Part shown: one piece after another, positions 3,221 to 63,018 of the stretch | Layout: every line of letters starts with the position of its first letter | Position numbering within the stretch: the stretch's first letter is position 1 | DNA from: an uncultured Collinsella sp. | GTDB lineage: Bacteria > Actinomycetota > Coriobacteriia > Coriobacteriales > Coriobacteriaceae | Length of the DNA: 64,000 nt | NCBI GenBank assembly: GCA_900540835.1 | Contig: UQHN01000004.1 | Coordinates: 165-64,164, forward strand | Reading direction: 5' to 3' | Notes under the pieces: generated by a model | What the model was told of the DNA's origin: nothing | What the model saw: only the letters and a program-made list of their open reading frames with translations | Database searches by the model: none | Made by a program: the position numbers and the translations under genes

Positions 3221-3341
3221 TCCCACTCGAACCTCGGAGCCGCGCTTCACGCGTTCCACACCGTTCACCGAGTTGTTGTAGCCTTTTGCCGAAGCGTGGA
3301 ATATACTTTCATTAACACGTTGCTTCGTGAAAGGAACATTC

Positions 3342-4274
3342 ATGATTTACACGCTTACTGCAAATCCCGCTATTGACTACAACATCTCCTGCGATGGCTT
3401 GTCCGCCAACACCGTTACCCGCACCCGTAACGCTGTCTACACCCCCAACGGCAAGGGTCTCAACGTTTCGTTTACGCTCGACCACTACGGCGTCGACACC
3501 ACGATCCTGGGCTTCTTCGCCGGCTTCTCGGGTGAGTATATCGTTAAGGGCGCCGAGGCCCTGGGCGTGCCCGTCAAGCCCGTGTGGACTGACGGCATCA
3601 CGCGTGTCAACGTGTTCCTCAATGCCGGTCCCGACACCGAGTACAACATGGTCAACGCCGGTGCCGCCATCAACGAGGCCAACGAGCAGGAGATGTTTGA
3701 GCTGATCGATTCGCTCGAGGACATGACCTGCCTGGTCATTAGCGGCTCGCTGCCCCCCAACACCTCTGAGGGCTTCCTGGCCGAGGTGCTTCGCCGCGTT
3801 AAGGCAAAGGGCGCCGAGTTCGTGCTCGATATTTCGAGCCATCAGTTGGCCGACCTCATTGCCATGGAGCCGCTGCTGATCAAGCCCAATGACGACGAGC
3901 TGCTCGACATCTTTGGCATTAAGGTGAGCGGCGGCGACGATGAGTCCGTCAAGGCTGCCATGGCCGAGCTGCATGCCAAGGGCGCCAAGAACGTGCTGTT
4001 GACCCTGGGTGGCGCCGGCGCGTACTTCTCCAACGGCGAGCACATCTGGTTTGCCAACCGTACCTTTGAGGTCAAGCTGCTGTCGACCGTTTGCGCCGGT
4101 GACTCTTCGCTGGCCGCCTTCCTGTCCGTGTGGCACGACGCTCCCGAGCGCGTCGAGGACGCCCTGCGCCTCTCGATGGCCACCGGCGCCAACGTGGTCG
4201 AGTGCCCGGGTCTGGGCGATTTTGCCAAGGTCGATGAGTATCAGAAGGGTATTGCAATTCGTCAGGTTTGCTAG
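3342..4274 (+). CDS. Second PfkB-family kinase (1-phosphofructokinase / tagatose-6-P kinase paralog)
   Basis: Begins MIYTLTANPAIDYN, parallel to the upstream paralog, and ends with the PfkB GAGDSSLAAFL motif. RBS aaagga sits before ATG 3342; the ORF track starts at 3327. Confidence 0.8.
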   Translation: MIYTLTANPAIDYNISCDGLSANTVTRTRNAVYTPNGKGLNVSFTLDHYGVDTTILGFFAGFSGEYIVKGAEALGVPVKPVWTDGITRVNVFLNAGPDTEYNMVNAGAAINEANEQEMFELIDSLEDMTCLVISGSLPPNTSEGFLAEVLRRVKAKGAEFVLDISSHQLADLIAMEPLLIKPNDDELLDIFGIKVSGGDDESVKAAMAELHAKGAKNVLLTLGGAGAYFSNGEHIWFANRTFEVKLLSTVCAGDSSLAAFLSVWHDAPERVEDALRLSMATGANVVECPGLGDFAKVDEYQKGIAIRQVC

Positions 4275-5961: not shown

Positions 5962-6038
5962 GGCCCGTTCGTCTAGCGGTTTAGGACGCCGCCCTCTCAA
6001 GGCGGAGATCACCAGTTCGAATCTGGTACGGGCTACCA
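5962..6038 (+). tRNA. tRNA-Glu: tRNA-Glu (anticodon CUC)
   Basis: Cloverleaf closely parallels E. coli tRNA-Glu (TTCGTCTAG...GGTTCGAATCC). The anticodon loop is CTCTCAA, and the 3' end is A-CCA encoded. Confidence 0.9.
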
Positions 6039-47928: not shown

Positions 47929-50900
47929 TCACGCTTCGCCCCAGAATCTATGCGTGTTGCGCAGGAGCTGTGCGGTTTTGCCCTCGGCGGCCGCAACGTC
48001 GGCCTCGTCAGCCTGCCAGGTCCAGTTGCCCGTGGCCACGCCCGGTACGTTCATGCGCGCGTCGTCGCCCAGCCCCAGGACATCCTGCAGCGGCATCATC
48101 ACCAGGGGAGCGTCGCTTGCCAGCGCATCGCTCATCAGCTTGGCCGCCACCTCAACACCGCTCGGTTCGTCGCCGCCCGCAAAGGAACGCGTACACCAAC
48201 CCGCGAGCGTCGACGTGTCGTGCGTCGAGGTATACAGGATCTTTCCTGGCGTAGGGTGCACGCCGCAACGGACGTCGTAGTCGCCAAACTCCAGCACGTC
48301 CATGCCGGGGAAGCCGCAGGTCGAGGCCATGGCGCGAACGCCGGGCGTCAAATAGCCCAGGTCCTCGGCAATAAAGTTGAGCGGACCCAGCTCGTCATAG
48401 GCGGTCTGAAACAGGTCCTTGCCCGGTCCCGCCAGCCAGCGACCTTCGGCGCAAGCCTTGCCAGCGGGGATACTGAAGTAGCTGTGGAAGCCCAAGAAGT
48501 GATCCAGACGCACGCGGTCGTAAAGTGAGAACGCACGACGTAGGCGATCCATCCACCAGCTATAGCCGTTCTGCTTCATGTGGTCCCAGCGGAACGTCGG
48601 GTTGCCCCACACCTGGCCCTCGGGCGCAAAGTTATCGGGCGGCGCACCGGAGATCTCGATTGCCTTGCCGGTATCGGATAGCCAGAAAATCTCGGGTTCG
48701 CTCCACGCATCTGCCGAATCGTCGGACACGTACATAGGGATATCGCCGATGACCTCGATGCCCTTCTTGTGCGCGTAGTTCATGAGCTCGCACCAGGCTA
48801 GGTCAAAGCGGTACTGCATGTACGCCTGAAGCTCGGCCTCGTCGTGGAAGCGCTTGTCGTCAATCAGGTGCTCGTTGTAGCGCGCAACATCTGCCGGCCA
48901 ATCGTGGCGCGACTCGCCCTCAAAGTATTTCTTGACGGCCATGTAGACGCAGTACTTCTCGAGCCAATCGGCATTGCGATGTTTAAACGCGGTGTACAGC
49001 GGATCGGCATCCTCGCCGCCACGGGCCTTCCAAGTTTCAAAGTCGGCCGCCAGCTCCTCGTGGCTTTCGGGCAGCAGGTCGATATTACCTGCAAAGGCCG
49101 AAGGACCGGCGTAAGGGGAGCGGAAGAAGTCCGTCGGGTTGACAGGCAGGACCTGCCAGTAGCGCATGCCCATAGCGGCCAGATGGTCGATAAAGCGACG
49201 CGTGGGTGCGCCGATCGTACCGGGCTTGCCGTCATCGGTCGGTACCGAGGTGATATGGCACACAACGCCCGCGCCGTGATCGAGCGGCTCCTGCAGGCGC
49301 TGCTCGGCATGGTGATAGATGATCGACGAGCCCAGCGGATACAAATCGAGCGTGACCGTGCCGTTGTGGATCTCGCACTCGTGACCGCTGATCACGTCAC
49401 TCGCGCATTCGTCGAGCGCCGGAATCGTCACGCGGTGCGAATTGCGCAGACTACGGTTAATGATAACCGTCGCGGACTCGCCATCCCTGCCCGTGCGGTT
49501 GTATGCCAGCACCTCGTCGTTGAGCGCGAAGGCCTTGATCTCGCCGTCGATCATAAACGGCAGTGCGCGGCGTACGGCGGAGGCGTTTTTGACAATAGCC
49601 AGCGTGTCGAAGTCGTGCAGTTGGTCCTTGGTCGGCATGGTGCGGCGGTTGCCCGGATCGGTAAGGCCCTCCAGGCCGTATTCGTCGCCGTAGTAGATCG
49701 AAGGCACGCCGGGGAAGGTCATCTGCATGAGCGTTGCAAGCCAAAAACGGCTCTTGGCCAGGCCCATCGCGTTCTCGTCCAGACGCCACTTGCTGCGCTC
49801 GCACTCGGGCAGCTGCGACTCGTCGGGGCCGCCGCCGAGCACCGAGATGATACGCGGGCGGTCGTGGCTCGAAAGCAGGTTGAGCGCGCAAGACAGGGCC
49901 TCACGCGGATAGTTCTCGCGTAGGGTCTCGATATCCTCGGCAGCTTGGTAGGCGTTTTTGTAGCCCATCAAAAAGCCGATGACCATGTCGCGGAAGGGGT
50001 AATCCATGGCAGAGTCCAGCTCGGAGCCCTGCAGGTAGCGGCGCAGATGGCCGTAGCTAATCTTGTTGGAGGCGTCCTCCCAGACTTCGCCGAGCAACAG
50101 TGCGTCAGGCTTTTCGGCAAGCACGGCCTTCTTGATCTCGGCCAGGAAGTCGTCGGAAAGCTCGTCAGCGACGTCCAGGCGCCAACCATGGGCACCGGCG
50201 CGCAGCCATTTGCGGATCACGCCGTCCTTACCTAGGAGCTTCTCGCGTACTAGCTCGGACTTCTCGTTGATGGCCGGCATGTTGCCCACACCCCACCAGC
50301 AGTCGTACGAGCCGTCCTCGTGGAAGGTAAACGCATCGCGCCACGGCGAGTCCTCGCTCTGCCACGCGCCCACGCCGGGGTAGTTGCCGTAGCGGTTGAA
50401 ATAGATCGAGTCGTCGCCCGTGTGGTTGAAGACGCCGTCCAGAATAACGGAGATGCCCAGCTTCTCGGCTGCCTGGCACAGCTCGGTAAAGTCCTGCTCG
50501 GTGCCCAGGATCGGGTCGATCTTGGTGTAGTCGGCCGTGTCGTAACGGTGGTTGCTCGCGGCTTCAAAGATGGGGTTGAGGTAGATGGCCGTAAAGCCCA
50601 ACTCGGCGATGCGGGGCAGGTCTTCCTGGATGCCCTTGAGCGAGCCGCCGTAGAAGTCCCAGGTCTTGATGGAGCCGTCCTCGGCGCGCTCGTATACGGG
50701 CGGCTCGTTCCAGTCCTCGACCATCCGGCGCTGAATACCCTTGCGCGGTTTTTCGAGTTCGGCCATTGTACGCTCGCGCCAATGCTCGTCACGGGCATAG
50801 CGATCGGGGAAGATCTGGTACACCATGCCGCGCTCGTACCAGGTGGGGCGGTTCTCGCGGTGCTTGTAGACGGTAATCTGGAAGGACGGAACCTCGGAGT

Positions 50901-51225
50901 AGTCGTAGGTCACACCCTCGCCACCGGTGCGACCCTGCGGTGCACCCAAGCGGACCTCGGGCTGGCCCTCGATATTGCAGATAAAGCTGTACCAGATAAG
51001 ACAGGGCTCGGTGCACTCAAGCTCTGCAGTAAATATGCCGTCGCCCTCGTGCGTCATGGGATACAGAGACTCACCGATTTCATCGACCCAGGTGCGCAGC
51101 GTAAGCGTTGCCTGGTTGGGATCGGCATCCTCCAAAATCACCGAGAGTGCAACGGAAGTTCCAGTGGTCACAGCGCCAAACGGAGTGCGAAACTGCGGCA
51201 GGCGGCTGTTGTGAATCAATCTCAT
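47929..51225 (-). CDS. malQ: Bifunctional GH13 alpha-amylase-family enzyme (neopullulanase/amylopullulanase-like) fused to GH77 4-alpha-glucanotransferase (MalQ)
   Basis: The N-terminal ~600 aa carry GH13 regions (GFTAIYLNPIF, DGVFNHTG, GWRLDVADE, EVWE, SHD). The C-terminal ~480 aa carry GH77 hallmarks (YWQVLPVNPTD, SPYAGPSAFAGN, GDIPMYVSDDSADAW, VWGNP, RLDHFLGF). Confidence 0.8.
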   Translation of the reverse strand: MRLIHNSRLPQFRTPFGAVTTGTSVALSVILEDADPNQATLTLRTWVDEIGESLYPMTHEGDGIFTAELECTEPCLIWYSFICNIEGQPEVRLGAPQGRTGGEGVTYDYSEVPSFQITVYKHRENRPTWYERGMVYQIFPDRYARDEHWRERTMAELEKPRKGIQRRMVEDWNEPPVYERAEDGSIKTWDFYGGSLKGIQEDLPRIAELGFTAIYLNPIFEAASNHRYDTADYTKIDPILGTEQDFTELCQAAEKLGISVILDGVFNHTGDDSIYFNRYGNYPGVGAWQSEDSPWRDAFTFHEDGSYDCWWGVGNMPAINEKSELVREKLLGKDGVIRKWLRAGAHGWRLDVADELSDDFLAEIKKAVLAEKPDALLLGEVWEDASNKISYGHLRRYLQGSELDSAMDYPFRDMVIGFLMGYKNAYQAAEDIETLRENYPREALSCALNLLSSHDRPRIISVLGGGPDESQLPECERSKWRLDENAMGLAKSRFWLATLMQMTFPGVPSIYYGDEYGLEGLTDPGNRRTMPTKDQLHDFDTLAIVKNASAVRRALPFMIDGEIKAFALNDEVLAYNRTGRDGESATVIINRSLRNSHRVTIPALDECASDVISGHECEIHNGTVTLDLYPLGSSIIYHHAEQRLQEPLDHGAGVVCHITSVPTDDGKPGTIGAPTRRFIDHLAAMGMRYWQVLPVNPTDFFRSPYAGPSAFAGNIDLLPESHEELAADFETWKARGGEDADPLYTAFKHRNADWLEKYCVYMAVKKYFEGESRHDWPADVARYNEHLIDDKRFHDEAELQAYMQYRFDLAWCELMNYAHKKGIEVIGDIPMYVSDDSADAWSEPEIFWLSDTGKAIEISGAPPDNFAPEGQVWGNPTFRWDHMKQNGYSWWMDRLRRAFSLYDRVRLDHFLGFHSYFSIPAGKACAEGRWLAGPGKDLFQTAYDELGPLNFIAEDLGYLTPGVRAMASTCGFPGMDVLEFGDYDVRCGVHPTPGKILYTSTHDTSTLAGWCTRSFAGGDEPSGVEVAAKLMSDALASDAPLVMMPLQDVLGLGDDARMNVPGVATGNWTWQADEADVAAAEGKTAQLLRNTHRFWGEA

Positions 51226-51430
51226 AGTACGGTCCAGTTCTATACAGTCATGGCCAACGGGCCATGGGCTAAACGCACAGTACTTAAGTATATCGTTGCA
51301 CTTTAGTTGTATAAACTACAGCCGCTCATTATCGGCGAACGGTTGTCCTAGAAAATCGTTTTACCATCCACATTATCGCGATACTCGAAAACGCCTATGT
51401 AGATAGTATTTGTAGCCAAACAAAACAGCT

Positions 51431-51564
51431 CCGGTTTACTACGACGAATTGAATGATCTCAACCACAGTCATTTTAGTGATATTAAAACTGCAGGTAGAA
51501 GCGTTGCCAATTTCGATGATTACTCGCCGTGGTCGGCCGGAGCCATTTTGTCGTAGTAAACCGG
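51431..51564. repeat. Intergenic repeat element, family 2 copy B
   Basis: Terminal inverted repeat CCGGTTTACTACGAC / GTCGTAGTAAACCGG. The core AAAACTGCAGGTAGAAGCGTTGCC sits at the same offset as in copy A, and total length is the same. Confidence 0.7.
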
Positions 51565-51594
51565 CCCTCTTTTTAATGCGGGGTTCAACCAAGA

Positions 51595-51627
51595 AGAGGG
51601 CGCCTGCTTGGGGCGCCCTCTTTTGCG
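51595..51627 (-). terminator. Hairpin downstream of glgA (possible bidirectional terminator)
   Basis: AGAGGGCGCC-tgcttg-GGGCGCCCTCT with T-runs on both flanks. Confidence 0.4.
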
Positions 51628-51654
51628 TTGAGGATTAAGTTTTAATCGTCAGGA

Positions 51655-53943
51655 TTAGCGGCGCTTGCGGGTGGCAGTTGCCTTGCGGACGGAGGTCTTC
51701 TTGGTCGGAGCCTTTTCCTCGGCCGGAGTGGCGGGGGAGACCGGAGTCTCCTTGGCAGGCTCGGGCTTAGCCTCTGCCTTCGGTGCGGCCTTGACCCCAG
51801 CGGCCTTCGGCGTCGGCTTGGCCTTTACCTCGGCCTTGGGCTCCTCTTTGGCAGCAGCGGGCTTAGCCTCTGCCTTGGGAGTTGCGGCCTTTGCCGTGGA
51901 CTTCTTGGCCGTCGTCGTTGCGCGCTTGCGCGTGGTGGTCTTGGCGGTCGGCTTGGCCTCGACAGCTGCCTCGGCCTTGGGCTCGGCGGCTGTCTCCTCG
52001 ACCTTGACGGCGGGCTTTGCGGCAGCCTTCAGAGCGGCCTTTGTCACAGTAGCCTTGGCGACCGTCGACTTCGTTGCCGTGGTCTTCTTGGCAGCTGTTG
52101 CCTTCTTGGCGGTCGTGGTCGTCTTCTTGGCAGCGGTCTTTGCCGGAGCCTTGGCGGACGGCTTGACCTCTGCGACCTCGGCCTTTACCTCGGCGGCGGC
52201 CTCGACCTCCGCGGCCTTCTTGGCAGCGGCGGTCGTGCGCTTGCGCGTCGTCGTTGCCTTGGCAGCGGTCATGGTCGTCGTAGTCTTCTTGGCCGTCGTC
52301 TTACGAGTCGCGGTCTTCTTTGCCGCAGGCTTCGTAGTGGGCTTCACCTCAGGCTCGGCCTTTGCGGGCTCAGCCTCAACCGGCTTCTCTTCGGCCTTGG
52401 GCTCCTCAGCGGCCACCGGCTCAGCAACAGCCTCAGGCTCGTCGACAACAGCCGCCGGCCGCTCAATCTCCGGATGCATAAAGAAGTACAGGTCCAGATA
52501 CTTGTCAGCCGAGCGCGTCCAGCTATAGTCCTGGCTCATGGCTTGCGTGACCAGCTGGTTCCAGGCATCGCGGTTGTCCCAGAACAGGCGTGCCGCACGG
52601 AACACGGCGTCGCCCATCTCGTCGCCGTTAAAGTTACTAAACGAGAAGCCCGTGCCCTCGCCGGTAAACTCGTTATACGGAATCACAGTGTCCTTCAGAC
52701 CACCGGTCTCGCGCACGATGGGCAGGGTACCGTAGCGCATGGCGATGATCTGCGACAGGCCGCAGGGCTCAAACTTCGAAGGCATCAGGAACATGTCGGC
52801 TGCGGCATACATGCGCTGCGACAGCGCCGGATCGAACTCGATGCGCGCGGCCATGGTGCCGGGGTATTTGTCCTGGAAGTAGCGCAGTCCGTCCTCGTAG
52901 TCGCGGTCGCCGGTGCCCAGAACGGCCACCTGAACGCCGCCGGCTAGGATGCGATCGAGCGCGTACATGACCAGGTCCATACCCTTTTGGCGCGTCAGGC
53001 GCGTGACCATCACCATAAGCGGACGGTCGTCGCGAACCTCGAGTCCCAGCTCTTCCTGCAGCTTGGCCTTGCACACGGCCTTGCCAGAACGGTCCTCCAC
53101 GGTGTAGTTGGCGGCAATGCGCTTGTCGGTCGCCGGGTCAAAGCCTGCCACATCAATGCCATTAAGGATGCCCTGCAGCGCGTACGAACGCTCGCGCAGC
53201 ACGCCATCCAGGCCCTCGCCAAACTCGGGCGTCTGGATCTCGTTGGCATAGGTGGGGCTCACCGTGGTGATGGCATCGGCATAGCGCAGGGCACCCAGCA
53301 TGTAGTTGATGCTGCAGGCGTCGCAACGCAGCTGCGAGGCGGCCGCCGGAATGTGCGCCACGCCCAGGATGTCCTCCATCACGGTGTCGCTAAACTGGCC
53401 TTGGAACGCCACGTTGTGGATCGAGAATACGGTCTTGACGCGGTCGTACAGTGGCAGGCCCTGGTAGAACTCGCGCAAGAACACGGGCGCCAGTGCCGTT
53501 TGCCAGTCGTTGCAGTGCAGTATGTCGCACTCAAAGCCGGCCGGCAGGTGCTGCAGACTCTCGGTGATGGCCTTGGAGAAGAACGCAAAGCGCTCGCCGT
53601 CGTCAAAGAAGCCGTACGGATAGTCGCGCGCAAAGTAGCGCTCGTTGTCGATGAACATATAGGTGACGCCGTCGTGCTCGAGCTTCTCGAGTCCGCAGTA
53701 CTCGTTGCGCCAGCCCAGGCTCACGTAAAAGTCGGAGAAGTGCTCCATCTGTGCCTTGTACTCGTCCTTGATGGTGGCGTACTTGGGCACCATCACGATA
53801 ACCTCGGCGCCGGCGCGCACGAGCGCCGCAGGCAGCGAGCCCGCCACGTCGCCCAGGCCGCCGGTCTTCACAAACGGCGCGCACTCGGCCGAGGCAAACA
53901 CGATCTGCATCTTTTTGCTGGAATCTGCCATATTGTCTCCCAT
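51655..53943 (-). CDS. glgA: Glycogen synthase (GT5) with a ~280 aa Lys/Ala/Thr-rich C-terminal tail
   Basis: N-terminal MQIVFASAECAPFVKTGGLGDV. Likely start is ATG 53931, which has an RBS gggaga. Catalytic domain is ~480 aa, then a PEAVAEP...AKKTATRKTTAKK...KAAPKAEAKPE low-complexity basic tail. Confidence 0.85.
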   Translation of the reverse strand: MGDNMADSSKKMQIVFASAECAPFVKTGGLGDVAGSLPAALVRAGAEVIVMVPKYATIKDEYKAQMEHFSDFYVSLGWRNEYCGLEKLEHDGVTYMFIDNERYFARDYPYGFFDDGERFAFFSKAITESLQHLPAGFECDILHCNDWQTALAPVFLREFYQGLPLYDRVKTVFSIHNVAFQGQFSDTVMEDILGVAHIPAAASQLRCDACSINYMLGALRYADAITTVSPTYANEIQTPEFGEGLDGVLRERSYALQGILNGIDVAGFDPATDKRIAANYTVEDRSGKAVCKAKLQEELGLEVRDDRPLMVMVTRLTRQKGMDLVMYALDRILAGGVQVAVLGTGDRDYEDGLRYFQDKYPGTMAARIEFDPALSQRMYAAADMFLMPSKFEPCGLSQIIAMRYGTLPIVRETGGLKDTVIPYNEFTGEGTGFSFSNFNGDEMGDAVFRAARLFWDNRDAWNQLVTQAMSQDYSWTRSADKYLDLYFFMHPEIERPAAVVDEPEAVAEPVAAEEPKAEEKPVEAEPAKAEPEVKPTTKPAAKKTATRKTTAKKTTTTMTAAKATTTRKRTTAAAKKAAEVEAAAEVKAEVAEVKPSAKAPAKTAAKKTTTTAKKATAAKKTTATKSTVAKATVTKAALKAAAKPAVKVEETAAEPKAEAAVEAKPTAKTTTRKRATTTAKKSTAKAATPKAEAKPAAAKEEPKAEVKAKPTPKAAGVKAAPKAEAKPEPAKETPVSPATPAEEKAPTKKTSVRKATATRKRR

Positions 53944-54021
53944 GTTGCAATTCGAGAATAGCCGCCTGGCGCTAACCGGGCGGCTATTCTACATGTTACG
54001 AGCGATGTTGCGGTGCCAACG

Positions 54022-55149
54022 TTAACGTACGATGGTGGTGTCGGAAGTTAACGGAGCCTTGCCCAGCACCAGGATGTTCTCGGGCGTGCCGCGAAGCTCG
54101 GTGTTGGTGGGAACCACGTTGTTCTTGTCCAGGATGGCGTTCTCGACGCGGGCGCCGCTCTTGATGATGCAGCTCTGGTTGATGATCGAGTTGGTGACCG
54201 AAGCGCCTTCCTCGACCACAACGCCGCGCGACAGGATCGAGTTGCGCACGGTGCCCTTGATGATGCAGCCGGCCGAGATGATCGAGTTGCACGCGTGGCT
54301 GCCGGTCGCATAGCGCGAAGGCGGCACGTCGTGAGCCTTGGTCAGGATCGGACGCTCGGGGTCAAAGAGCTGGTCGGCCACGGTCTGGTCGAGCAGGTCC
54401 ATGCTGCGGCGATACAGCGACTTCTCGCTAAACACGCCCACGACCTCGCCCTTGTACTCGTAGCTGCACACGTCGATGTTGCCAAAGTCGCCCTGGAGTG
54501 CCTCGAGCAGGTCCAGATAGTCGGCGGCCTGGTAGTGGTCGATGATCTCGAGCAGCGTCTCGCGGTTGACGATGCAGCAGTCCATGGAGGCGTTGTCGCC
54601 GTACACGACGCCGGCGCTCACGCCCGTCAGGCGGCCGTTCTCGTTAATCTCGAGCTTGGTCTCGTCATCGACGTTGCGCGTGGCCTTGCAGTACACCACG
54701 GTCATCTGGGCGCCAGAGTTCTCGTGCGCCTCGATGATGGTGTTGAGGTCCATGTTAAAGATGATGTTGGTGCCCATCATCACAACATAGGGCTTGTCCG
54801 AGCGCTGGAACAGCGTCTTGTTGGAGATGATGTCGCGCAGCAAGAAGCGCATACCGCCCTTGGTGGTGCCATACGCGTTGCCGGGGACCATGAACAGGCC
54901 GCCCTTCTTGCGGTCCAGGCCCCAGTCCTTGCCCGAGCCCACGTGATCGATCAGCGAGCGGTAGTTGCCCGGCATGACGACGCCGACGGTCTTAATGCCG
55001 GCATTCATCATGTTGGACAGCGGGAAGTCGATCAGGCGGTAGCGGCCCAAAAACGGAACGGACGCGATGGGGCGGTCCTTGAGCAGCACGCTGCCGTAGG
55101 TCGAAGAGTAGTTAGCGGTGATATAACCGATGGCCTTGCGATTGATCAT
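54022..55149 (-). CDS. glgD: Glucose-1-phosphate adenylyltransferase regulatory subunit GlgD
   Basis: NTP-transferase fold plus left-handed beta-helix, lacking the GlgC catalytic GG-G-RL motif. Start at ATG 55149 (RBS aaggggga); the ORF track opens at 55188. Confidence 0.8.
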   Translation of the reverse strand: MINRKAIGYITANYSSTYGSVLLKDRPIASVPFLGRYRLIDFPLSNMMNAGIKTVGVVMPGNYRSLIDHVGSGKDWGLDRKKGGLFMVPGNAYGTTKGGMRFLLRDIISNKTLFQRSDKPYVVMMGTNIIFNMDLNTIIEAHENSGAQMTVVYCKATRNVDDETKLEINENGRLTGVSAGVVYGDNASMDCCIVNRETLLEIIDHYQAADYLDLLEALQGDFGNIDVCSYEYKGEVVGVFSEKSLYRRSMDLLDQTVADQLFDPERPILTKAHDVPPSRYATGSHACNSIISAGCIIKGTVRNSILSRGVVVEEGASVTNSIINQSCIIKSGARVENAILDKNNVVPTNTELRGTPENILVLGKAPLTSDTTIVR

Positions 55150-55153
55150 CGGA

Positions 55154-56302
55154 TCATTCCCCCTTCCCGATAACGACGTCATTTCCAACGACGGCCGTAT
55201 CCTTGGTGGTATCGACAGAGCCGAGCTTCACGCCCTCTTCGACCGTGGAGTTCTCGCCCAAAATAGCGCGGCAGATGTGCGCGCCGCTCTTAACGTGCGC
55301 ACCCGGCAGCAGCACGGAGTCCTCGACCACGGCACGCTCCTCGATGATGACATCAGTCGAAAGAATCGAGTGGCGAGCGGTGCCGTAGATCTTGCAGCCG
55401 TTGGAGACCAGGCAGTCGTCCAGGCGGCCGTCCGGGCCAATATAGTGCGGCGGTCGCGTGGTGATGTTGGACATGATGGGGAAGTGCTTGTCGAACAGAT
55501 CGAACTCGGGGTTGTTGCCCAGCAGGTCCATCGAGGTCTCGTGGAAGCTGGCGATGGTGCCGACGTCCTTCCAAAAGCCGTGGAACTCGTAGCTGTACAG
55601 ACGCTTGTTCTCGCCGAGCAGCTTGGGGATGATGTCCTTGCCAAAGTCGTGGCTCGAACGCTGGTCCAGAGCGTCCTCCTCGAGCGCCTCGATCAGCACG
55701 TCGGCCGAGAAGATGTAGATGCCCATGGACGCGAGGTTCGAATCGGGCTTCTCGGGCTTCTCGGTAAACTTGGTAATGCGGCCATCCTCGGGGTCGGTGG
55801 TCAGGATGCCAAAGCGGCTGGCCTCCTCCCACGGCACGGGCATAACGCTCACCGTGAGGTCGGCGTTGTTCTCAATGTGCGTCTTGAGCATCTTGCGGTA
55901 GTCCATGCGATACAGGTGATCGCCCGAAAGAATCAGGACGTACTTGGGGTCGTTGGCCTTGATGTAGTCGAGGTTCTGCGTAATGGCGTCGGCCGTGCCC
56001 GCATACCAGGCGCCACCGGTCTGCGTCTCGTACGGCGGCAGGATCGACACGCCGCCGTCGCGGCTGTCCAGATCCCACGCCTCGCCGGAGCCCACGTAGG
56101 CATGCAGCAGGTAGGGACGGTACTGCGTCAGAACGCCCACCGTGTCGATGCCCGAGTTGGAGCAGTTGGACAGCGAAAAGTCGATAATGCGGAACTTGCC
56201 ACCAAAGCTAACCGCCGGCTTGGCGATCTTTTGGGTGAGTGCCCCCAATCGGCTGCCCTGTCCTCCTGCGAGGAGCATCGCGATGCATTCTTTCTTACTC
56301 AT
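55154..56302 (-). CDS. glgC: Glucose-1-phosphate adenylyltransferase
   Basis: [23 protein letters not shown] and the C-terminal LbH domain; RBS aaggag. Confidence 0.95.
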
Positions 56303-56408
56303 CGATTTCTCCTTCTGTCATCGATGTTCCTAAACCCATTTGCGACGGGCGCGGCGCTCTGTCACGCCCGTCGAGTAATGCCGTGCGGCAAAGGGAGCTC
56401 GCGCGCCT

Positions 56409-58835
56409 TTACGCGTGCCAGATCTCGTCGCGGTACTCGCGAATGGTGCGGTCGCTCGAGAACCAGCCGGAGGAGGCGGTGTTGAGCAAGGCCTTGCGGT
56501 TCCAGGTTTCCTGGTCGCCGTAGCTGCCGGTGAGCTTTTCCCATGCATCCACGTAGCTGCGGAAGTCGGCCATGACTAGGTCGGGGTCGTTGTTGTTCAT
56601 GAGCTCGTTGTAGATGCTCTCGAAGTTGCCCGAAAGACCCGCGAACGTGTTGTCCTTGAGCTCGTCCATCACGCGGCCCAGACGCTCGCGGTCGCCGTTG
56701 AGGGTATCCCACGCAAAGTAGCTGTTGGATGCCCAGAGCTGCTCGACCTCGGGGGCGGTCAGGCCAAAGATGGCCTCGTTCTCGCGACCGGCCAGGTCGG
56801 CGATCTCGATGTTGGCGCCGTCGAGGGTGCCCAGCGTAATGGCGCCGTTCATCATGAGCTTCATGTTAGACGTGCCCGAGGCCTCCTTGCCGGCCGTGGA
56901 GATCTGCTCCGAGATCTCGGCGGCGGGGTAGATGAGCTGGGCGTTGCTCACGCGGAAGTTGGGGATAAAGCAGACCTTCATGACCTCATTGACGCGGGCA
57001 TCGTTGTTGATGACGTCGGCAACGGAGTTAATGAGGCGGATGGTCTCCTTGGCAAAGGTGTAGCTCGAGGCAGCCTTGCCACTAAAGATGAAGGTCGTCG
57101 GCGTCACGTGGAAGTTGGGATCGGCGATGCGACGGTTGTAGATGTCCATCACCTTCATGATATTCATGAGCTGGCGCTTATAGGCGTGGAAGCGCTTTAC
57201 CTGGACATCGAAGACGGTGTTGGGGTCGATGACCAGACCGGTCTCGGCCTTGACGTAGGCGGCCAGACGCTCCTTGTTGGCGCGCTTGGAGGCACCAACG
57301 GCCTTCAGGAACTCGGTGTCGTTCTGGAACTCTTTGAGCTTCTCCAGCTCAAAGGCGTCCTTGAGCCAGCCATCGCCAATGGCCTCGGTCACGAGCTTGG
57401 CATAGGTGGGGTTGGCCTCGGCAAAGAAGCGACGGTGCGAGATGCCGTTGGTCTTGTTGTTGAACTTCTCGGGCGTGAGGGCATAGAAGTCTTTGAGCAC
57501 GATGTTCTTGATGATGTCGGAATGGATCTTGGCCACGCCGTTGACGCTGTGGCTGCAGATCACAGACAGGTTGGCCATGCGAATCTCGCCGTCCCACAGG
57601 ATGGCGGTCTGGCGCAGACGCTCCTGCCAGCCCTCCTTCGTGGTGTCGAACGACTCGTGCCAACGACGGCTGATCTCGTCGATGATCTGGTACACGCGGG
57701 GGAGGAGCTTGGAGAACGTGCCGATGGGCCACTTCTCCAGAGCCTCGGGCAGGATGGTGTGGTTGGTGTAGCTCACGACCTGCGTCACGATGTTCCAGGC
57801 GTCGTCCCACTCGAGCTTCTTCTCGTCGATGAGGATGCGCATGAGCTCGGGGCCGCACATGGCGGGGTGCGTGTCGTTGGTGTGGATGGCCACAAACTGC
57901 GGCAGCAGCTCCCAGTTCTCGCCGTGCTCCTTCTCAAAGGTGTCGAGCAGGCTGTAGATGCCGGCCGAGACAAACAGGTACTCCTGCTTCAGGCGCAGCA
58001 GACGGCCGTGCTCGCCGGCGTCGTTGGGGTAGAGGATGGCGCTGATGGCCTCGGCCTCGGCGCGCTCGGCGTCGGCCAGGGCGTAGTCGCCGCGGTTGAA
58101 GGCCTCCAGATCGAAGTGCTCCTCGACCGGCTCGGCAGCCCAGACGCGCAGCTTGTTGACTGTCTCGCCGGCATAGCCCACCACGGGGATGTCATAGGGG
58201 ACGGCCAGGATGTCCTGCGTGTCCACCGTGCGGTAGAACGTGCGGCCGTTCTCCTCAAAGCCCTCGACGCGGCCACCAAACTTGATGGTCACGGCCTTAT
58301 CCTGACGACGGACCTCCCAGGGATAGCCGTGGGTGAGCCACTCGTCGGTGGCCTCGACCTGGCTGCCGTTGACGATCTCCTGCTTAAACAGACCGTAGCG
58401 GTAACGCATGCCGTTGCCGTAGCCGGCAATGCCCTCGGCTGCCATCGAATCCAGGAAGCACGCGGCCAGACGGCCCAGGCCACCGTTGCCCAGAGCCGGA
58501 TCGGGCTCCTGGTTCTCGATGACGGACAGGTCAAAGCCCATGTCGTCGAGCGCCTCGGCGACCATGTCGCGCACGCCAAAGTTGAGCAGGTAGTTGTCGA
58601 GCAGGCGGCCGATCAAAAACTCGATCGAGAAGTAGTACACGCGCTTTTTGCCCTCGGCGGTGACGCGGGCGTCACTCTTGGTGGCAACGGTGCGCGCCTT
58701 CTCGGCCACGAGCTTGGCCAGGGCGTTAAAGCGGTCGAGGTCGCTGGCGGCCTCGACGCTCTTGCCGCTGATGCTCATGACGGCATCGCGATAGAGCTCG
58801 GTAAACTCCTGCTTGTTGTCAAAGATCTTATTCAT
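56409..58835 (-). CDS. glgP: Glycogen / alpha-glucan phosphorylase
   Basis: 808 aa with PLP-lysine motif EASGTSNMKLMMNGA. Confidence 0.95.
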   Translation of the reverse strand: MNKIFDNKQEFTELYRDAVMSISGKSVEAASDLDRFNALAKLVAEKARTVATKSDARVTAEGKKRVYYFSIEFLIGRLLDNYLLNFGVRDMVAEALDDMGFDLSVIENQEPDPALGNGGLGRLAACFLDSMAAEGIAGYGNGMRYRYGLFKQEIVNGSQVEATDEWLTHGYPWEVRRQDKAVTIKFGGRVEGFEENGRTFYRTVDTQDILAVPYDIPVVGYAGETVNKLRVWAAEPVEEHFDLEAFNRGDYALADAERAEAEAISAILYPNDAGEHGRLLRLKQEYLFVSAGIYSLLDTFEKEHGENWELLPQFVAIHTNDTHPAMCGPELMRILIDEKKLEWDDAWNIVTQVVSYTNHTILPEALEKWPIGTFSKLLPRVYQIIDEISRRWHESFDTTKEGWQERLRQTAILWDGEIRMANLSVICSHSVNGVAKIHSDIIKNIVLKDFYALTPEKFNNKTNGISHRRFFAEANPTYAKLVTEAIGDGWLKDAFELEKLKEFQNDTEFLKAVGASKRANKERLAAYVKAETGLVIDPNTVFDVQVKRFHAYKRQLMNIMKVMDIYNRRIADPNFHVTPTTFIFSGKAASSYTFAKETIRLINSVADVINNDARVNEVMKVCFIPNFRVSNAQLIYPAAEISEQISTAGKEASGTSNMKLMMNGAITLGTLDGANIEIADLAGRENEAIFGLTAPEVEQLWASNSYFAWDTLNGDRERLGRVMDELKDNTFAGLSGNFESIYNELMNNNDPDLVMADFRSYVDAWEKLTGSYGDQETWNRKALLNTASSGWFSSDRTIREYRDEIWHA

Positions 58836-58929
58836 ACGTTCCTTTCCCCCGGGGATGTTTCTCCCGGAACGGTAATGACTTGTATCCTACGCCTCGTCGG
58901 GGCGGGTAATTACAGTGGTAACGCCTTTG

Positions 58930-61236
58930 TTACGCTTTCTTAGCAGGAGCCTTAACGGCAGCTGCCTTAGCCTTGGGAGCGGCCTTTTTGGTGGCTGCCT
59001 TTTTGGCCGTGGTGGACTTGGCCGAAGCCTTGGCAGTGGGCTTGGTAGCCTTCGCCTTGGCCGGCGCCTTCTTAGCGGCCGCGGCCTTGGGCTTCACCGA
59101 GGACGTGCGCTTGCGCGTAGTCTTCTTGGGAGCCTCGACCACGGGCGGCTTGTAGCTGCTGGGACCGCGACGCTTAAGCACCACGCCTGCCAGGCCGGGA
59201 ACCTTAATCTCAATGGAATCCATCTGCCCGTTCCAGGGATAGGGCTCGCTCGAGCAGGTGTAGGGCTCCTCGCCGGCATAGCCACTGCCGCCAAACTCGG
59301 GACGGTCGGAGTCGAAGATGACCTCCCAGTCACCCTCGCGCGGCACGCCCACGCGGAAGCTCTCATAGCTCGCCGGATCAAAGTTGATCAGGATCACCAG
59401 ATCGTCGTCGATGTCCTCGCCCTGGCGCACAAAGCTCACGATGGACTGCTTGGAGTTATCCGCATCGATCCAGGTAAAGCCGTCGTCGGTGTAGCCACGC
59501 TCGTACAGGGCGGGCTCGGCGGTGTACAGGTGGTTGAGCGCCTTGATAAACGCCTGATGATGACGGTGGGTCTCGTACTCCTCGGTCAGGAACCACTGGA
59601 TGGACTCGTAGTAGCGCCACTCAATAAACTGGCCGATCTCGTTGCCCATAAAGTTGAGCTTGGCACCGGGGTGCGTCATCTGGTAGAAGGCCAGCGTGCG
59701 CAGGCCGGCAAACTGGCGCCACCAGTCGCCCGGCATACGGCCGATCAGCGAGCATTTACCGTGGACGACCTCGTCGTGGCTCAGCGGACAGATAAAGTTC
59801 TCGGTAAAGGCGTACATGATGGAGAACGTGAGCAGGCCGTGGTTGCCGGGGCGCCACGGAAAATCGGTCTGCATGTAGTGCAGGGTGTCGTTCATCCAGC
59901 CCATGTCCCACTTGTAGTGGAACCCCAGGCCGCCGTCCTGCGGCGGGTAGGTCACGAGCGGCCACGCGGTGGACTCCTCGGCCATCATCATCACGTCGGG
60001 GTAGTGTGCCTCCACGGCGCAGTTGACCTGACGGATAAACGCGCTGGCGTCCAGGTCCTCCTCGGTACCGTACTTGTTGAACTTCTTTTGGCCCGGATCG
60101 TCGATGCCAAAGTTGAGGTACAGCATGCTGGACACGCCGTCCATGCGGATGCCGTCCACATGGAAGTTCTCGAGCCAGTACAGCACGTTAGAGACCAAGA
60201 AGGAGCGGACCTCGCCACGGGCGAAGTCAAACTTATGCGTGCCCCAGTTGGGGTGAATCTCGTGTTCAAACAGCATGTGGCCGTTAAAGGTGGCAAGGCC
60301 GTGGGAGTCGGCACAAAAACCGCCGGGCACCCAGTCCATGATCACGCCGATGCCCGCCTCGTGGCACGCATCGATAAAGTGCATGAGCTGCTGCGGGTTG
60401 CCGTAGCGCGACGTGGCGGCATAGTAGCCGGTCGTCTGGTAGCCCCAGGAGCCATCGAAGGGATGCTCCATAAGCGGCATAACCTCAATGTGCGTATAGC
60501 CCATGTCGCGCACGTAGTCCACGAGCTCCACCGACAGGTCGTCGTAGGTATAGAACTCGCCGCGCTGCGCGGGGAAGGGATCCATGGGGCCGGGGTAGTT
60601 GCCGTACTCGTCGGGCTCGCCCTGCGGCGCGTCGCCGTGGCGCTTCCACGATCCAATATGCACCTCGTAGATGTTAAGGGGCTGCGACATGTGGTTATGG
60701 CTGGCGCGGCGCTGGAGCCATGCGGCGTCGTTCCACTTATAGCCGTCGAGGGTCCACAGCACGCTCGCCGTACCCGGAGGGCACTCGGCCTTAAAGGCAT
60801 ACGGATCGGCCTTATAGAGCTTTTCGCCCTCGTTGGTCTCGATGAGATACTTATAGAGCTGACCTTGTTCTGCGCCAGGAATAAAGCCTTCCCAGATAGC
60901 GCTCGTATGCACGGGCACCAGCGGGTTGGCTTCTTCATTCCAGTCGTTAAATTCGCCAATGACATGCACGCTCTTTACATCGGGCGCCCAAACGCAAAAG
61001 CGCCAGCCGCGCGTACGGTTCTGCGTGTCGGGGTGCGCGCCCATCTTTTCCCAGCTGCGCTCCCACGTGCCGATGCCAAATAGATAGACATCGTCCTTGG
61101 TGAGCTCCGGTGCGTGCGGGGCGGCTTTACGGGTTGCGGGCTTTTTAGCCGTTGGCTTTAGCTTTGTATCGCTCACGTTTGATCCCATCATGACGCGGCA
61201 GCGTGTTGCCTTGGTGACTAGATGCGAAAGGTCCAA
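58930..61236 (-). CDS. glgB: 1,4-alpha-glucan branching enzyme with a ~90 aa Lys/Ala-rich C-terminal tail
   Basis: GH13 branching-enzyme core (CBM48 N-domain, GIGVIMDWVPGGF, DGIRMDGV), then the tail PKKTTRKRTSSVKPKAAAAKKAPAKAKATKPTAKASAKSTTAKKAATKKAAPKAKAAAVKAPAKKA. Start is 61236 or the internal ATG at 61191. Confidence 0.9.
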   Translation of the reverse strand: MDLSHLVTKATRCRVMMGSNVSDTKLKPTAKKPATRKAAPHAPELTKDDVYLFGIGTWERSWEKMGAHPDTQNRTRGWRFCVWAPDVKSVHVIGEFNDWNEEANPLVPVHTSAIWEGFIPGAEQGQLYKYLIETNEGEKLYKADPYAFKAECPPGTASVLWTLDGYKWNDAAWLQRRASHNHMSQPLNIYEVHIGSWKRHGDAPQGEPDEYGNYPGPMDPFPAQRGEFYTYDDLSVELVDYVRDMGYTHIEVMPLMEHPFDGSWGYQTTGYYAATSRYGNPQQLMHFIDACHEAGIGVIMDWVPGGFCADSHGLATFNGHMLFEHEIHPNWGTHKFDFARGEVRSFLVSNVLYWLENFHVDGIRMDGVSSMLYLNFGIDDPGQKKFNKYGTEEDLDASAFIRQVNCAVEAHYPDVMMMAEESTAWPLVTYPPQDGGLGFHYKWDMGWMNDTLHYMQTDFPWRPGNHGLLTFSIMYAFTENFICPLSHDEVVHGKCSLIGRMPGDWWRQFAGLRTLAFYQMTHPGAKLNFMGNEIGQFIEWRYYESIQWFLTEEYETHRHHQAFIKALNHLYTAEPALYERGYTDDGFTWIDADNSKQSIVSFVRQGEDIDDDLVILINFDPASYESFRVGVPREGDWEVIFDSDRPEFGGSGYAGEEPYTCSSEPYPWNGQMDSIEIKVPGLAGVVLKRRGPSSYKPPVVEAPKKTTRKRTSSVKPKAAAAKKAPAKAKATKPTAKASAKSTTAKKAATKKAAPKAKAAAVKAPAKKA

Positions 61237-62942: not shown

Positions 62943-63018
62943 GGGGGCGTAGCTCAGCTGGGAGAGCGCTTGACTGGCAGTCAAGAGGTCAGGGGTTCGA
63001 TCCCCCTCGTCTCCACCA
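62943..63018 (+). tRNA. tRNA-Ala: tRNA-Ala (anticodon GGC)
   Basis: GGGGGCGTAGCTCAGCTGGGAGAGCG...GGTTCGATCCCC, anticodon loop CTGGCAG, the G3:U70 Ala identity pair, and CCA encoded. Confidence 0.9.

Follow-up and report, generated by a model that had tools for sequence, protein, structure and literature searches.

The glycogen synthase (GlgA) of an uncultured Collinsella species carries a long, lysine-rich C-terminal tail that is kept throughout the genus, evolves under purifying selection, and has a shorter counterpart on the branching enzyme GlgB, encoded in the same gene cluster. Both genes lie in a stretch of 64,000 nucleotides (contig UQHN01000004.1, positions 165 to 64,164 of the forward strand; assembly GCA_900540835.1). 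This stretch is referred to below as the window, and coordinates count from its first letter. The GlgA tail is a chain of modules: conserved polycationic Lys/Thr/Ala blocks, and acidic Glu/Pro/Ala/Val spacers whose length is variable. These features suggest that the two tails may tether the glycogen-building enzymes to nucleoid DNA or to another polyanion.

A selected extension of a complete GlgA

The glgA gene and its 3' end comprise the following features, all on the minus strand:

51655..53943, minus strand: glgA open reading frame (ORF), 762 residues, with its stop codon at 51655-51657.
52474..53943, minus strand: GlgA catalytic unit, residues 1-490, with GT5 and GT1 domains and KTGGL at residue 26.
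51658..52473, minus strand: GlgA tail, residues 491-762, 272 residues.
51594..51622, minus strand: terminator-like hairpin 3' of glgA, found by folding, with an 11-bp G+C-rich stem followed by CUUCUUG.

Database entries start GlgA four codons downstream, at MADSS, to give a protein of 758 residues. The catalytic unit matches the Pfam families GT5 (PF08323; residues 13-251, E 1.1e-81) and GT1 (PF00534; residues 303-446, E 3.3e-12). The NCBIfam GlgA equivalog model NF001898 scores 658.8 bits (cut-off 603), and pairs residues 12-486 with profile positions 1-472 of 477. By family assignment from sequence, this is a bona fide, complete ADP-glucose-type GlgA. It is like the canonical enzyme of Escherichia coli and Agrobacterium (about 477 residues) in its complete catalytic unit and in its operon, glgB-glgP-glgC-glgD-glgA, but has 272 extra C-terminal residues. 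A preliminary description, made from the letters of the window, had reported an uninterrupted in-frame tail on a complete GlgA, and the ORF indeed holds no stop or frameshift. The strings quoted there as typical (AKKT, KAAPKAEAKP, KKTTTTAKKATAAKK, PEAVAEP, and EEPKAE) are all present. Its upper bound of 52500 was set slightly too far, taking in the last nine or so catalytic residues; the true edge is at 52473.

A scan with one genome per species identified 80 related loci. Of these, 79 are titled Collinsella or Coriobacteriaceae, and one (L080) is titled Oribacterium sp. None of the 80 encodes a tail-less GlgA: the 72 complete ORFs encode 694-799 residues and none stops near residue 490, and the eight ORFs that are cut by contig ends all extend beyond the catalytic end. 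The C-terminus SVRKATATRKR[RH] is reached in frame by 69 of the 72 complete ORFs. This holds although coding-sequence length takes 40 different values in an alignment of 70 sequences; every indel therefore is in frame. Across species the tail measures 217-313 residues, but its composition hardly changes: 18-20% Lys, 23-32% Ala, 14-21% Thr, and a net charge of +20 to +38. Another 120 variants that a protein search listed, from NCBI, JGI, ENA, and Logan assemblies, measure 726-785 residues, and no truncated allele is among those 120. The comparison of orthologs that the preliminary description had called for thus finds the tail genus-wide in Collinsella, and also in a relative with 66-75% identity (P0127, below).

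Rates of substitution set the tail apart from the catalytic unit. For 300 random pairs (Nei-Gojobori method), the ratio of nonsynonymous to synonymous substitution rates (dN/dS) is 0.26 in the tail versus 0.037 in the catalytic unit; dN alone is 0.100 versus 0.0085, or about 12-fold faster in the tail. Nucleotide diversity in the tail at codon positions 1, 2, and 3 is 0.129, 0.068, and 0.239, and this order (3>1>2) is a coding pattern. The tail therefore is a translated extension and, because dN/dS is 0.26, one under purifying selection. Diversity by codon position, which supports the minus-strand frame, and the minus-strand dN/dS together rule out the opposite-strand, Ala-rich ORF (51665..52528) as a real gene. 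It is a by-product of composition, as the preliminary description had supposed.

Three complete ORFs lack the conserved C-terminus. One is L080, which has a divergent tail. The other two, L073 and L071, are the only such cases titled Collinsella. L073 is collinear with the window to 52450, eight codons into the tail, and continues with unrelated sequence that is not of the Lys/Ala/Thr type (3284..4128; the contig is 4 kb long, with 4x coverage); L071 has a frame shift about 25 codons ahead of the normal stop. These two departures may be errors or real variants. Separately, in two proteins of 134 residues (P0121 and P0122, encoded on ENA contigs of 4.4 and 2.6 kb), an IF2_N domain of low-GC type is fused to the last 68 residues of a GlgA tail, this part being 88-89% identical to the Collinsella tail. 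Both probably are metagenome assembly chimeras that arose through shared repeats encoding Lys, Ala, Glu, and Pro.

RNA folding places the hairpin about 35 nucleotides past the glgA stop codon (-26.4 kcal/mol, z = -4.96 relative to shuffled sequences), although a scan for consensus terminators did not list it. Because this terminator-like structure follows so closely, glgA ends where its tail ends. The intergenic region of about 430 nucleotides between glgA and the next gene (51226..51654) has a markedly lower GC content, 0.48-0.49 against about 0.62; the region holds this hairpin along with one promoter-like site (51315..51287, minus strand).

A chain of basic blocks and acidic spacers

Seven residues dominate the tail: Ala, 27.9%; Lys, 19.5%; Thr, 16.5%; Glu, 11.8%; Pro, 9.9%; Val, 7.0%; and Arg, 3.7%. 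Charged residues make up 35%, with 63 Lys plus Arg against 33 Asp plus Glu, for a net charge of +30. Its hydrophobic residues number three (one each of Ile, Leu, and Met), and there are no aromatic residues. Such a composition marks the tail as an intrinsically disordered, highly hydrophilic extension, predicted to be unable to fold. Searches with the tail alone matched no Pfam family (E up to 10) and no PDB chain (E up to 1), HMMER bias filters limiting the sensitivity of both, and returned five matches from a protein database, none informative, with HMMER composition filters applied.

The tail divides into eight segments, listed here from the catalytic end to the C-terminus:

52345..52473, minus strand: acidic Glu/Pro/Ala/Val spacer 1, residues 491-533, net charge -10; variable and indel-rich among species.
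52216..52344, minus strand: conserved basic block 1, residues 534-576, net charge +14; KPAAKKTATRKTTAKK...ATTTRKRTTAAAKK, with two TRK(R) motifs.
52165..52215, minus strand: acidic Ala/Glu/Val spacer 2, residues 577-593, net charge -4.
52003..52164, minus strand: basic block 2, residues 594-647, net charge +15; the longest lysine-repeat run, KTAAKKTTTTAKKATAAKKTTATK.
51955..52002, minus strand: acidic spacer 3, residues 648-663, net charge -4.
51874..51954, minus strand: conserved basic block 3, residues 664-690, net charge +9; KPTAKTTTRKRATTTAKK.
51715..51873, minus strand: mixed Lys/Glu/Pro/Ala region, residues 691-743, net charge +1; the most variable, gap-rich part.
51658..51714, minus strand: C-terminal motif KAPTKKTSVRKATATRKRR, residues 744-762, net charge +9; nearly invariant.

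Conservation follows these divisions. In the alignment of 70 Collinsella sequences, the share of the commonest residue per column averages 0.97-1.00 in the catalytic unit. Within the tail, three stretches are almost gapless with shares of 0.91-0.97: residues 541-570, 661-690, and 751-762. By block, the share is about 0.9 in both block 1 and block 3, intermediate in block 2, and 0.97 without gaps in the C-terminal motif. The acidic and mixed spacers have shares of 0.66-0.77, contain 12-20% gaps, and hold most of the indels. The tail is thus built of conserved polycationic blocks joined through spacers whose length is free to vary.

Two short motifs recur in the tail beyond what its composition predicts. 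Lysine repeats of the strict form K1-2(A/T/N)3-5 occur six times, against 1.5 +/- 1.2 in shuffled tails (12 of 5000 shuffles reach six); they include a run of four units, and the catalytic domain has none. For [TV]RK, the tail has five copies where 0.46 are expected, a count attained in 2 of 20000 shuffles; these five [TV]RK(R) motifs account for all nine Arg residues of the tail proper.

A second tail, on the branching enzyme

The glgB gene, 5 kb upstream of glgA, encodes a tail of its own:

58930..61191, minus strand: glgB, branching enzyme, 753 residues, with CBM48, alpha-amylase, and Alpha-amylase_C domains.
58933..59157, minus strand: GlgB C-terminal Lys/Ala/Thr/Pro tail, 75 residues, net charge +23, with the motif PKKTTRKRTSSVKPK.

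The GlgB tail, SYKPPVVEAPKKTTRKRTSSVKPKAAAAKKAPAKAKATKP...APAKKA, is 32% Ala, 29% Lys, 11% Pro, and 11% Thr, with a single acidic residue. Its KKTTRKR motif is common to the GlgA tail, and the GlgB N-terminus also has a KKPATRK stretch. A tail is present in all 47 Collinsella loci with an upstream match to a conserved anchor peptide from the GlgB C-terminus. The motif in these loci is mostly PKKATRKR[TAS]SSVKPK, or PKAAPKKR in about ten; the remaining Lys/Ala/Thr/Pro sequence varies.

A screen of all ORFs in the window for 40-residue stretches with at least 15% Lys and at least 85% Lys, Ala, Thr, Pro, Glu, and Val combined returned GlgA and GlgB only. By this screen, no Lys-rich terminus is present in GlgP, GlgC, GlgD, or the amylase-MalQ fusion encoded next to GlgA. 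Likewise, of 39 confidently called window genes, just these two encode a basic, non-hydrophobic C-terminus.

The cluster spans 47929..61191 on the minus strand in the order glgB-glgP-glgC-glgD-glgA-(GH13-GH77 fusion). Its remaining members are:

56409..58835, minus strand: glgP.
55154..56302, minus strand: glgC.
54022..55188, minus strand: glgD.
47929..51225, minus strand: GH13-GH77 (amylase-MalQ) fusion, 1098 residues, joining a GH13 alpha-amylase-type domain to a GH77 4-alpha-glucanotransferase.

If the TTG at 55188 is the start of glgD, this gene overlaps the stop region of glgC by about 35 nucleotides (55154..55188). The GH13-GH77 fusion lies directly downstream of glgA and is kept in related Coriobacteriia loci (L081, 3598..6900; L083, 12115..15405). 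Elsewhere in the window, two tRNA genes (Rfam RF00005, 62-65 bits) are on the plus strand at 5962..6035 and 62943..63015.

Relatives outside Collinsella

GlgA sequences were sought among 1.84 billion cluster representatives. The nearest relatives, with their identity to the Collinsella protein, are:

P0127 (801 residues; locus L081, 70% GC): 66-75% identity; GlgA tail of 314 residues, rich in Ala, Thr, Ser, and Lys, net charge +20; syntenic.
L080 (CAVGWH010000060.1, titled Oribacterium sp.): 82% GlgA identity; Lys/Ala/Thr/Ser tail with TTTRKK, ATKR, and STRK motifs.
P0129 (498 residues; locus L083): 61% identity; no GlgA tail; same operon order; GlgB end PKPRTKKAATTKAATTKAATKKPATKKAATKK.
P0130: 58% identity; no GlgA tail.
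P0133: 52% identity; no GlgA tail.

The P0127 tail hardly can be aligned with that of Collinsella; it contains RTKR motifs and ends in KPAATRKRSR. L080 has the Collinsella-type order glgB-glgP-glgC-glgD-glgA, 58% GC, and tails on both GlgA and GlgB; its Oribacterium label probably is a binning error. The GlgA tails of P0127 and L080 diverge fast, yet keep TRK-type motifs and a net positive charge. Shorter basic GlgB ends are found in L083 (PKPRTKKAATTKAATTK...) and in the Oscillospiraceae locus L085 (KLPKPRKKKEAKELEKP). Since L083 combines such an end with a tail-less GlgA, the GlgB tail looks older than the GlgA tail.

Long extensions are uncommon in this family: 13 of 145 GlgA representatives with an alignable catalytic end have at least 30 extra C-terminal residues. 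Six of these 13 are fusions to folded domains (GH13, GalT-like, and SCP2-like). The others carry Lys/Ala-rich low-complexity tails, and belong to Collinsella, its relatives, and three to four unrelated lineages (P0132, P0138, P0250, and P0241, the last with a short tail), or about five lineages in all. For the P0138 lineage, NCBI gives the name Oscillospiraceae to one member, and 118 variants are listed (P0276-P0393). The GlgA proteins of this lineage measure 610, 617, 624, 631, and 638 residues, plus two variants of 626. Most steps thus are multiples of seven residues, and reflect how many times an acidic heptad, (EEPAPVV)n, is repeated ahead of a conserved Lys-rich block, KPAKKTSTKKTAKKSAKK...KKETKKKGPAVKEKKEK. 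The lineage offers a clean series of spacer lengths made by nature. The same layout is seen in P0132 and P0250. To judge from the Oscillospiraceae sequences, the arrangement of catalytic domain, acidic spacer, and basic end recurs in another phylum.

Likeness to known tails

Lysine repeats of the form K1-2(A/T/N)3-5 were described in the C-terminus of Streptomyces TopA, where they form the DNA-binding interface and make the complex of enzyme and DNA more stable (Strzalka et al. 2017, PMC5714199). Such repeats are over-represented in actinobacterial DNA-binding proteins, including HupS, HrdB, FtsK, and Ku (PMC5714199). The GlgA tail shares several features with the TopA type: same phylum; same motif grammar; C-terminal position; predicted disorder; and associated acidic residues. 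It has tandem units near the C-terminus, in a GC-rich actinobacterial host (GC about 0.6), as expected for these repeats. There are differences as well. GlgA and GlgB are glycogen enzymes without a known DNA transaction; the repeats in the GlgA tail are interrupted by long acidic spacers and accompanied by T-R-K-(R) motifs, which fall outside the TopA definition; and the tail is about four times longer than the 71-residue TopA stretch.

The preliminary description had likened the tail to those of HupB/MDP1 and histone H1. In composition the likeness stands: all are rich in Lys and Ala, basic, and predicted to be disordered. The motifs do not follow. The 272 residues contain no PAKKA, no PAKK, no [ST]PKK, and two KPAA, and thus lack the tandem repeats of tails of the H1, HupB, AlgP, and PhaF kinds. 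Unlike the HupB/MDP1 and H1 tails, the GlgA tail has 16.5% Thr and 12% Glu, and matches no linker-histone or HC2-type model. By these comparisons, the HupB/H1 resemblance is one of composition only. The basic blocks fit the actinobacterial lysine repeats better, and DNA binding is a prediction from that fit.

Granule tethers offer a third comparison. In Ralstonia eutropha, the PAKKA motifs of PhaM fix polyhydroxybutyrate (PHB) granules to the nucleoid, and in Pseudomonas putida the H1-like tail of PhaF segregates polyhydroxyalkanoate (PHA) granules (PMC9049629). In Pseudomonas aeruginosa, the KPAA tail of AlgP spaces polyphosphate (polyP) granules, and the cationic domain is needed for granule organisation (PMC9239181). 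Like PhaM and PhaF, with their H1-like PAKKA or AAKP tails, the tailed glycogen enzymes join a Lys/Ala-rich, presumably disordered C-terminus to a module that acts on a carbon-storage polymer or its synthase. By analogy, the outcome also may be similar: nucleoid-bound granules that are shared out when the cell divides. PhaM and PhaF, however, are a separate adaptor and phasin, whereas in Collinsella the synthase and the branching enzyme bear the tails themselves, and the stored polymer is glycogen rather than a polyester. AlgP likewise has a highly cationic, disordered C-terminal domain (net charge +55, against +30 for the GlgA tail), but it consists of regular KPAA tandem repeats, is associated with polyP, and lacks both acidic spacers and an enzyme domain. 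The general layout of a storage-granule tether is seen twice in the Collinsella cluster: the GlgA catalytic unit with a tail of net charge +30, and GlgB, with its CBM48, with one of +23. A literature search found no description of lysine-rich or disordered tails on GlgA or GlgB, and the parts consulted of a 2024 Chemical Reviews article on alpha-glucan enzymes mention no such tail.

A proposed spacer-plus-polycation tether and its rivals

The roles that the preliminary description proposed for the tail (tethering to the nucleoid, to polyP, to the cell envelope, or to glycogen granules; or action as a disordered scaffold) were reasonable candidates. It did not include the modular conservation, the tailed GlgB, or the recurrence of the layout in other GlgA lineages. 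With these added, we favour the reading in which the tails anchor both enzymes either to nucleoid DNA or to some other polyanion, and give it a little less than an even chance. Several observations point this way: the tail is under selection; its basic blocks are conserved; its motifs are non-random; the similar repeats of TopA bind DNA; GlgB is tailed too; the layout recurs in distant GlgA lineages; and PhaM, PhaF, and AlgP provide precedent.

In the proposed model, the polycationic blocks would bind a cellular polyanion non-specifically. Nucleoid DNA would be the likeliest partner, with RNA and polyP as alternatives. The acidic Glu/Pro/Ala/Val stretches would act as extended spacers. GlgA would be tethered by its tail, and GlgB likewise by its shorter, similar one. 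Both enzymes presumably grip the growing glucan: GlgA through its active-site cleft and surface sites; GlgB through its CBM48. Since the tethered enzymes would hold the growing glucan, nascent glycogen particles would be nucleated and kept beside the nucleoid, rather than swept to the poles. The two biosynthetic enzymes thereby would stay together, and the reserve would be shared evenly between daughter cells. The logic would be that of PhaM, PhaF, and AlgP, but with the tether built into the enzymes and no separate adaptor protein. A difficulty that such a tether could overcome is known from E. coli, in which nucleoid exclusion drives glycogen and GlgA-GFP to the old pole, where they can displace the chromosome (PMC4836754).

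Several points weigh against this proposal. The computed results do not separate DNA from RNA, polyP, or self-association as the partner. One third of the charged residues in the GlgA tail are acidic, and the basic blocks could be neutralised intramolecularly. Proven granule tethers carry tandem PAKKA or KPAA repeats, and the GlgA tail has none. In Streptomyces, 379 of 554 lysine-repeat proteins have no DNA-binding annotation (PMC5714199). The closest tail-less relative, P0129, has the same operon order, so the tail is not essential to the pathway. Specificity for GlgA and GlgB is judged from 39 genes, with both tailed proteins in a six-gene cluster (hypergeometric p of about 0.02). Finally, an AlphaFold2 model made from a shallow alignment of 25 Collinsella sequences has a mean predicted local distance difference test (pLDDT) score of 31, with the catalytic domain poor too; it has no secondary structure past residue 489, which at this pLDDT is not evidence for or against disorder.

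The rival that survives best is self-assembly or co-assembly, in which the blocky polyampholyte tails would bind each other, with the basic GlgB tail binding the acidic GlgA blocks. This would gather the two enzymes in a condensate, or at the surface of the granule, with no need of nucleic acid. We consider this credible but unlikely. Long-range charge segregation in the GlgA tail is consistent with it: sequence charge decoration is 9.3, against 13.1 +/- 1.3 in shuffles (z = -3.0), and the block charges run -10, +14, -4, +15, -4, +9, +1, +9. So are the GlgB tail, at net charge +23 with its lone acidic residue, and the Oscillospiraceae tails, in which a long acidic repeat is followed by a basic block. 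However, local patterning of the kappa type does not differ from that of shuffles (z = 0.9; 318 of 2000 shuffles equal or exceed the observed value). Moreover, the acidic blocks are the least conserved and are free in length, and so fit spacers better than specific interaction surfaces, and a net charge of +30 disfavours homotypic coacervation without a polyanion.

The tails instead might be entropic bristles: a polyelectrolyte brush on neutral glycogen particles, to which GlgA and GlgB would stay bound, that, like a phasin but without any specific partner, would improve solubility, lessen coalescence, and control size. The extreme hydrophilicity (three hydrophobic residues in 272, and 35% charged) and the freely varying length (217-313 residues) would suit such a brush, as would the restriction of tails to the two enzymes that stay on the polymer. 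Yet a bristle needs neither conserved islands, an invariant C-terminal RKATATRKRR, nor a motif shared between GlgA and GlgB, and it needs no positive net charge kept at +20 to +38. This explanation therefore seems somewhat less probable than co-assembly.

Less probable again is a tolerated low-complexity expansion with little or no function, a drifting appendix formed by replication slippage in the end of a GC-rich gene. Consistent with drift are the roughly 12-fold higher dN (0.100 versus 0.0085), the frequent indels, and the short DNA repeats of 18-24 bp; relatives at 58-61% identity lack the tail, and the P0127 and L080 tails are almost unalignable. Against it, the dN/dS of 0.26 denotes purifying selection, 69 of 72 species representatives retain the frame and the C-terminal motif, no truncated allele is among the 120 variants listed, GlgB has a parallel tail, and a similar layout exists in another phylum.

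The weakest explanation, that errors in sequencing or assembly, or the fusion of a downstream gene, created the extension, is refuted: a few database entries are indeed clearly artefactual on this argument (L073, L071, and P0121/P0122), but the same architecture occurs in isolates and in metagenome-assembled genomes from many independent projects, and a terminator-like hairpin follows the stop codon. Fusion with a downstream H1-like gene in particular is ruled out by L083, in which the 617-bp non-coding gap 3' of the tail-less glgA contains no Lys/Ala-rich reading frame. Anchoring to the membrane or envelope is the least likely of the proposed roles, since a signal peptide is lacking and the tail is free of hydrophobic and amphipathic segments. 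Interpretation of the RKR motifs as basophilic-kinase sites or nuclear localization signals was dropped as unsupported.

Implications

Bacterial glycogen usually is seen as a passively distributed reserve. To our knowledge, it has no known factor for positioning or partitioning, whereas PHB, PHA, polyP, carboxysomes, and magnetosomes each have one. In E. coli, untethered glycogen and GlgA gather at the old pole, and there they can crowd out the chromosome and reduce replicative lifespan (PMC4836754). Conserved polycationic tails on both polymer-building enzymes offer a testable handle on the spatial organisation of glycogen synthesis, one that is strengthened by the look-alike architecture in Oscillospiraceae. 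They also extend the lysine-repeat module from actinobacterial DNA-handling proteins to metabolic enzymes.

The widest form of the proposal is that Collinsella and, independently, at least one Oscillospiraceae lineage position their glycogen machinery via polycationic tethers, built into GlgA and GlgB, to the nucleoid or a polyanionic scaffold. This may be so, although we regard it as doubtful in its full extent. If the tail were merely a solubility appendix, the result would be a minor annotation note.

Collinsella is an abundant human gut genus, repeatedly tied to host metabolic phenotypes; its carbohydrate storage therefore is of some applied interest. If the proposal holds in its widest form, this would be the first bacterial system described for organising and partitioning glycogen granules, with the tether residing inside the enzymes and not in a phasin-like adaptor.

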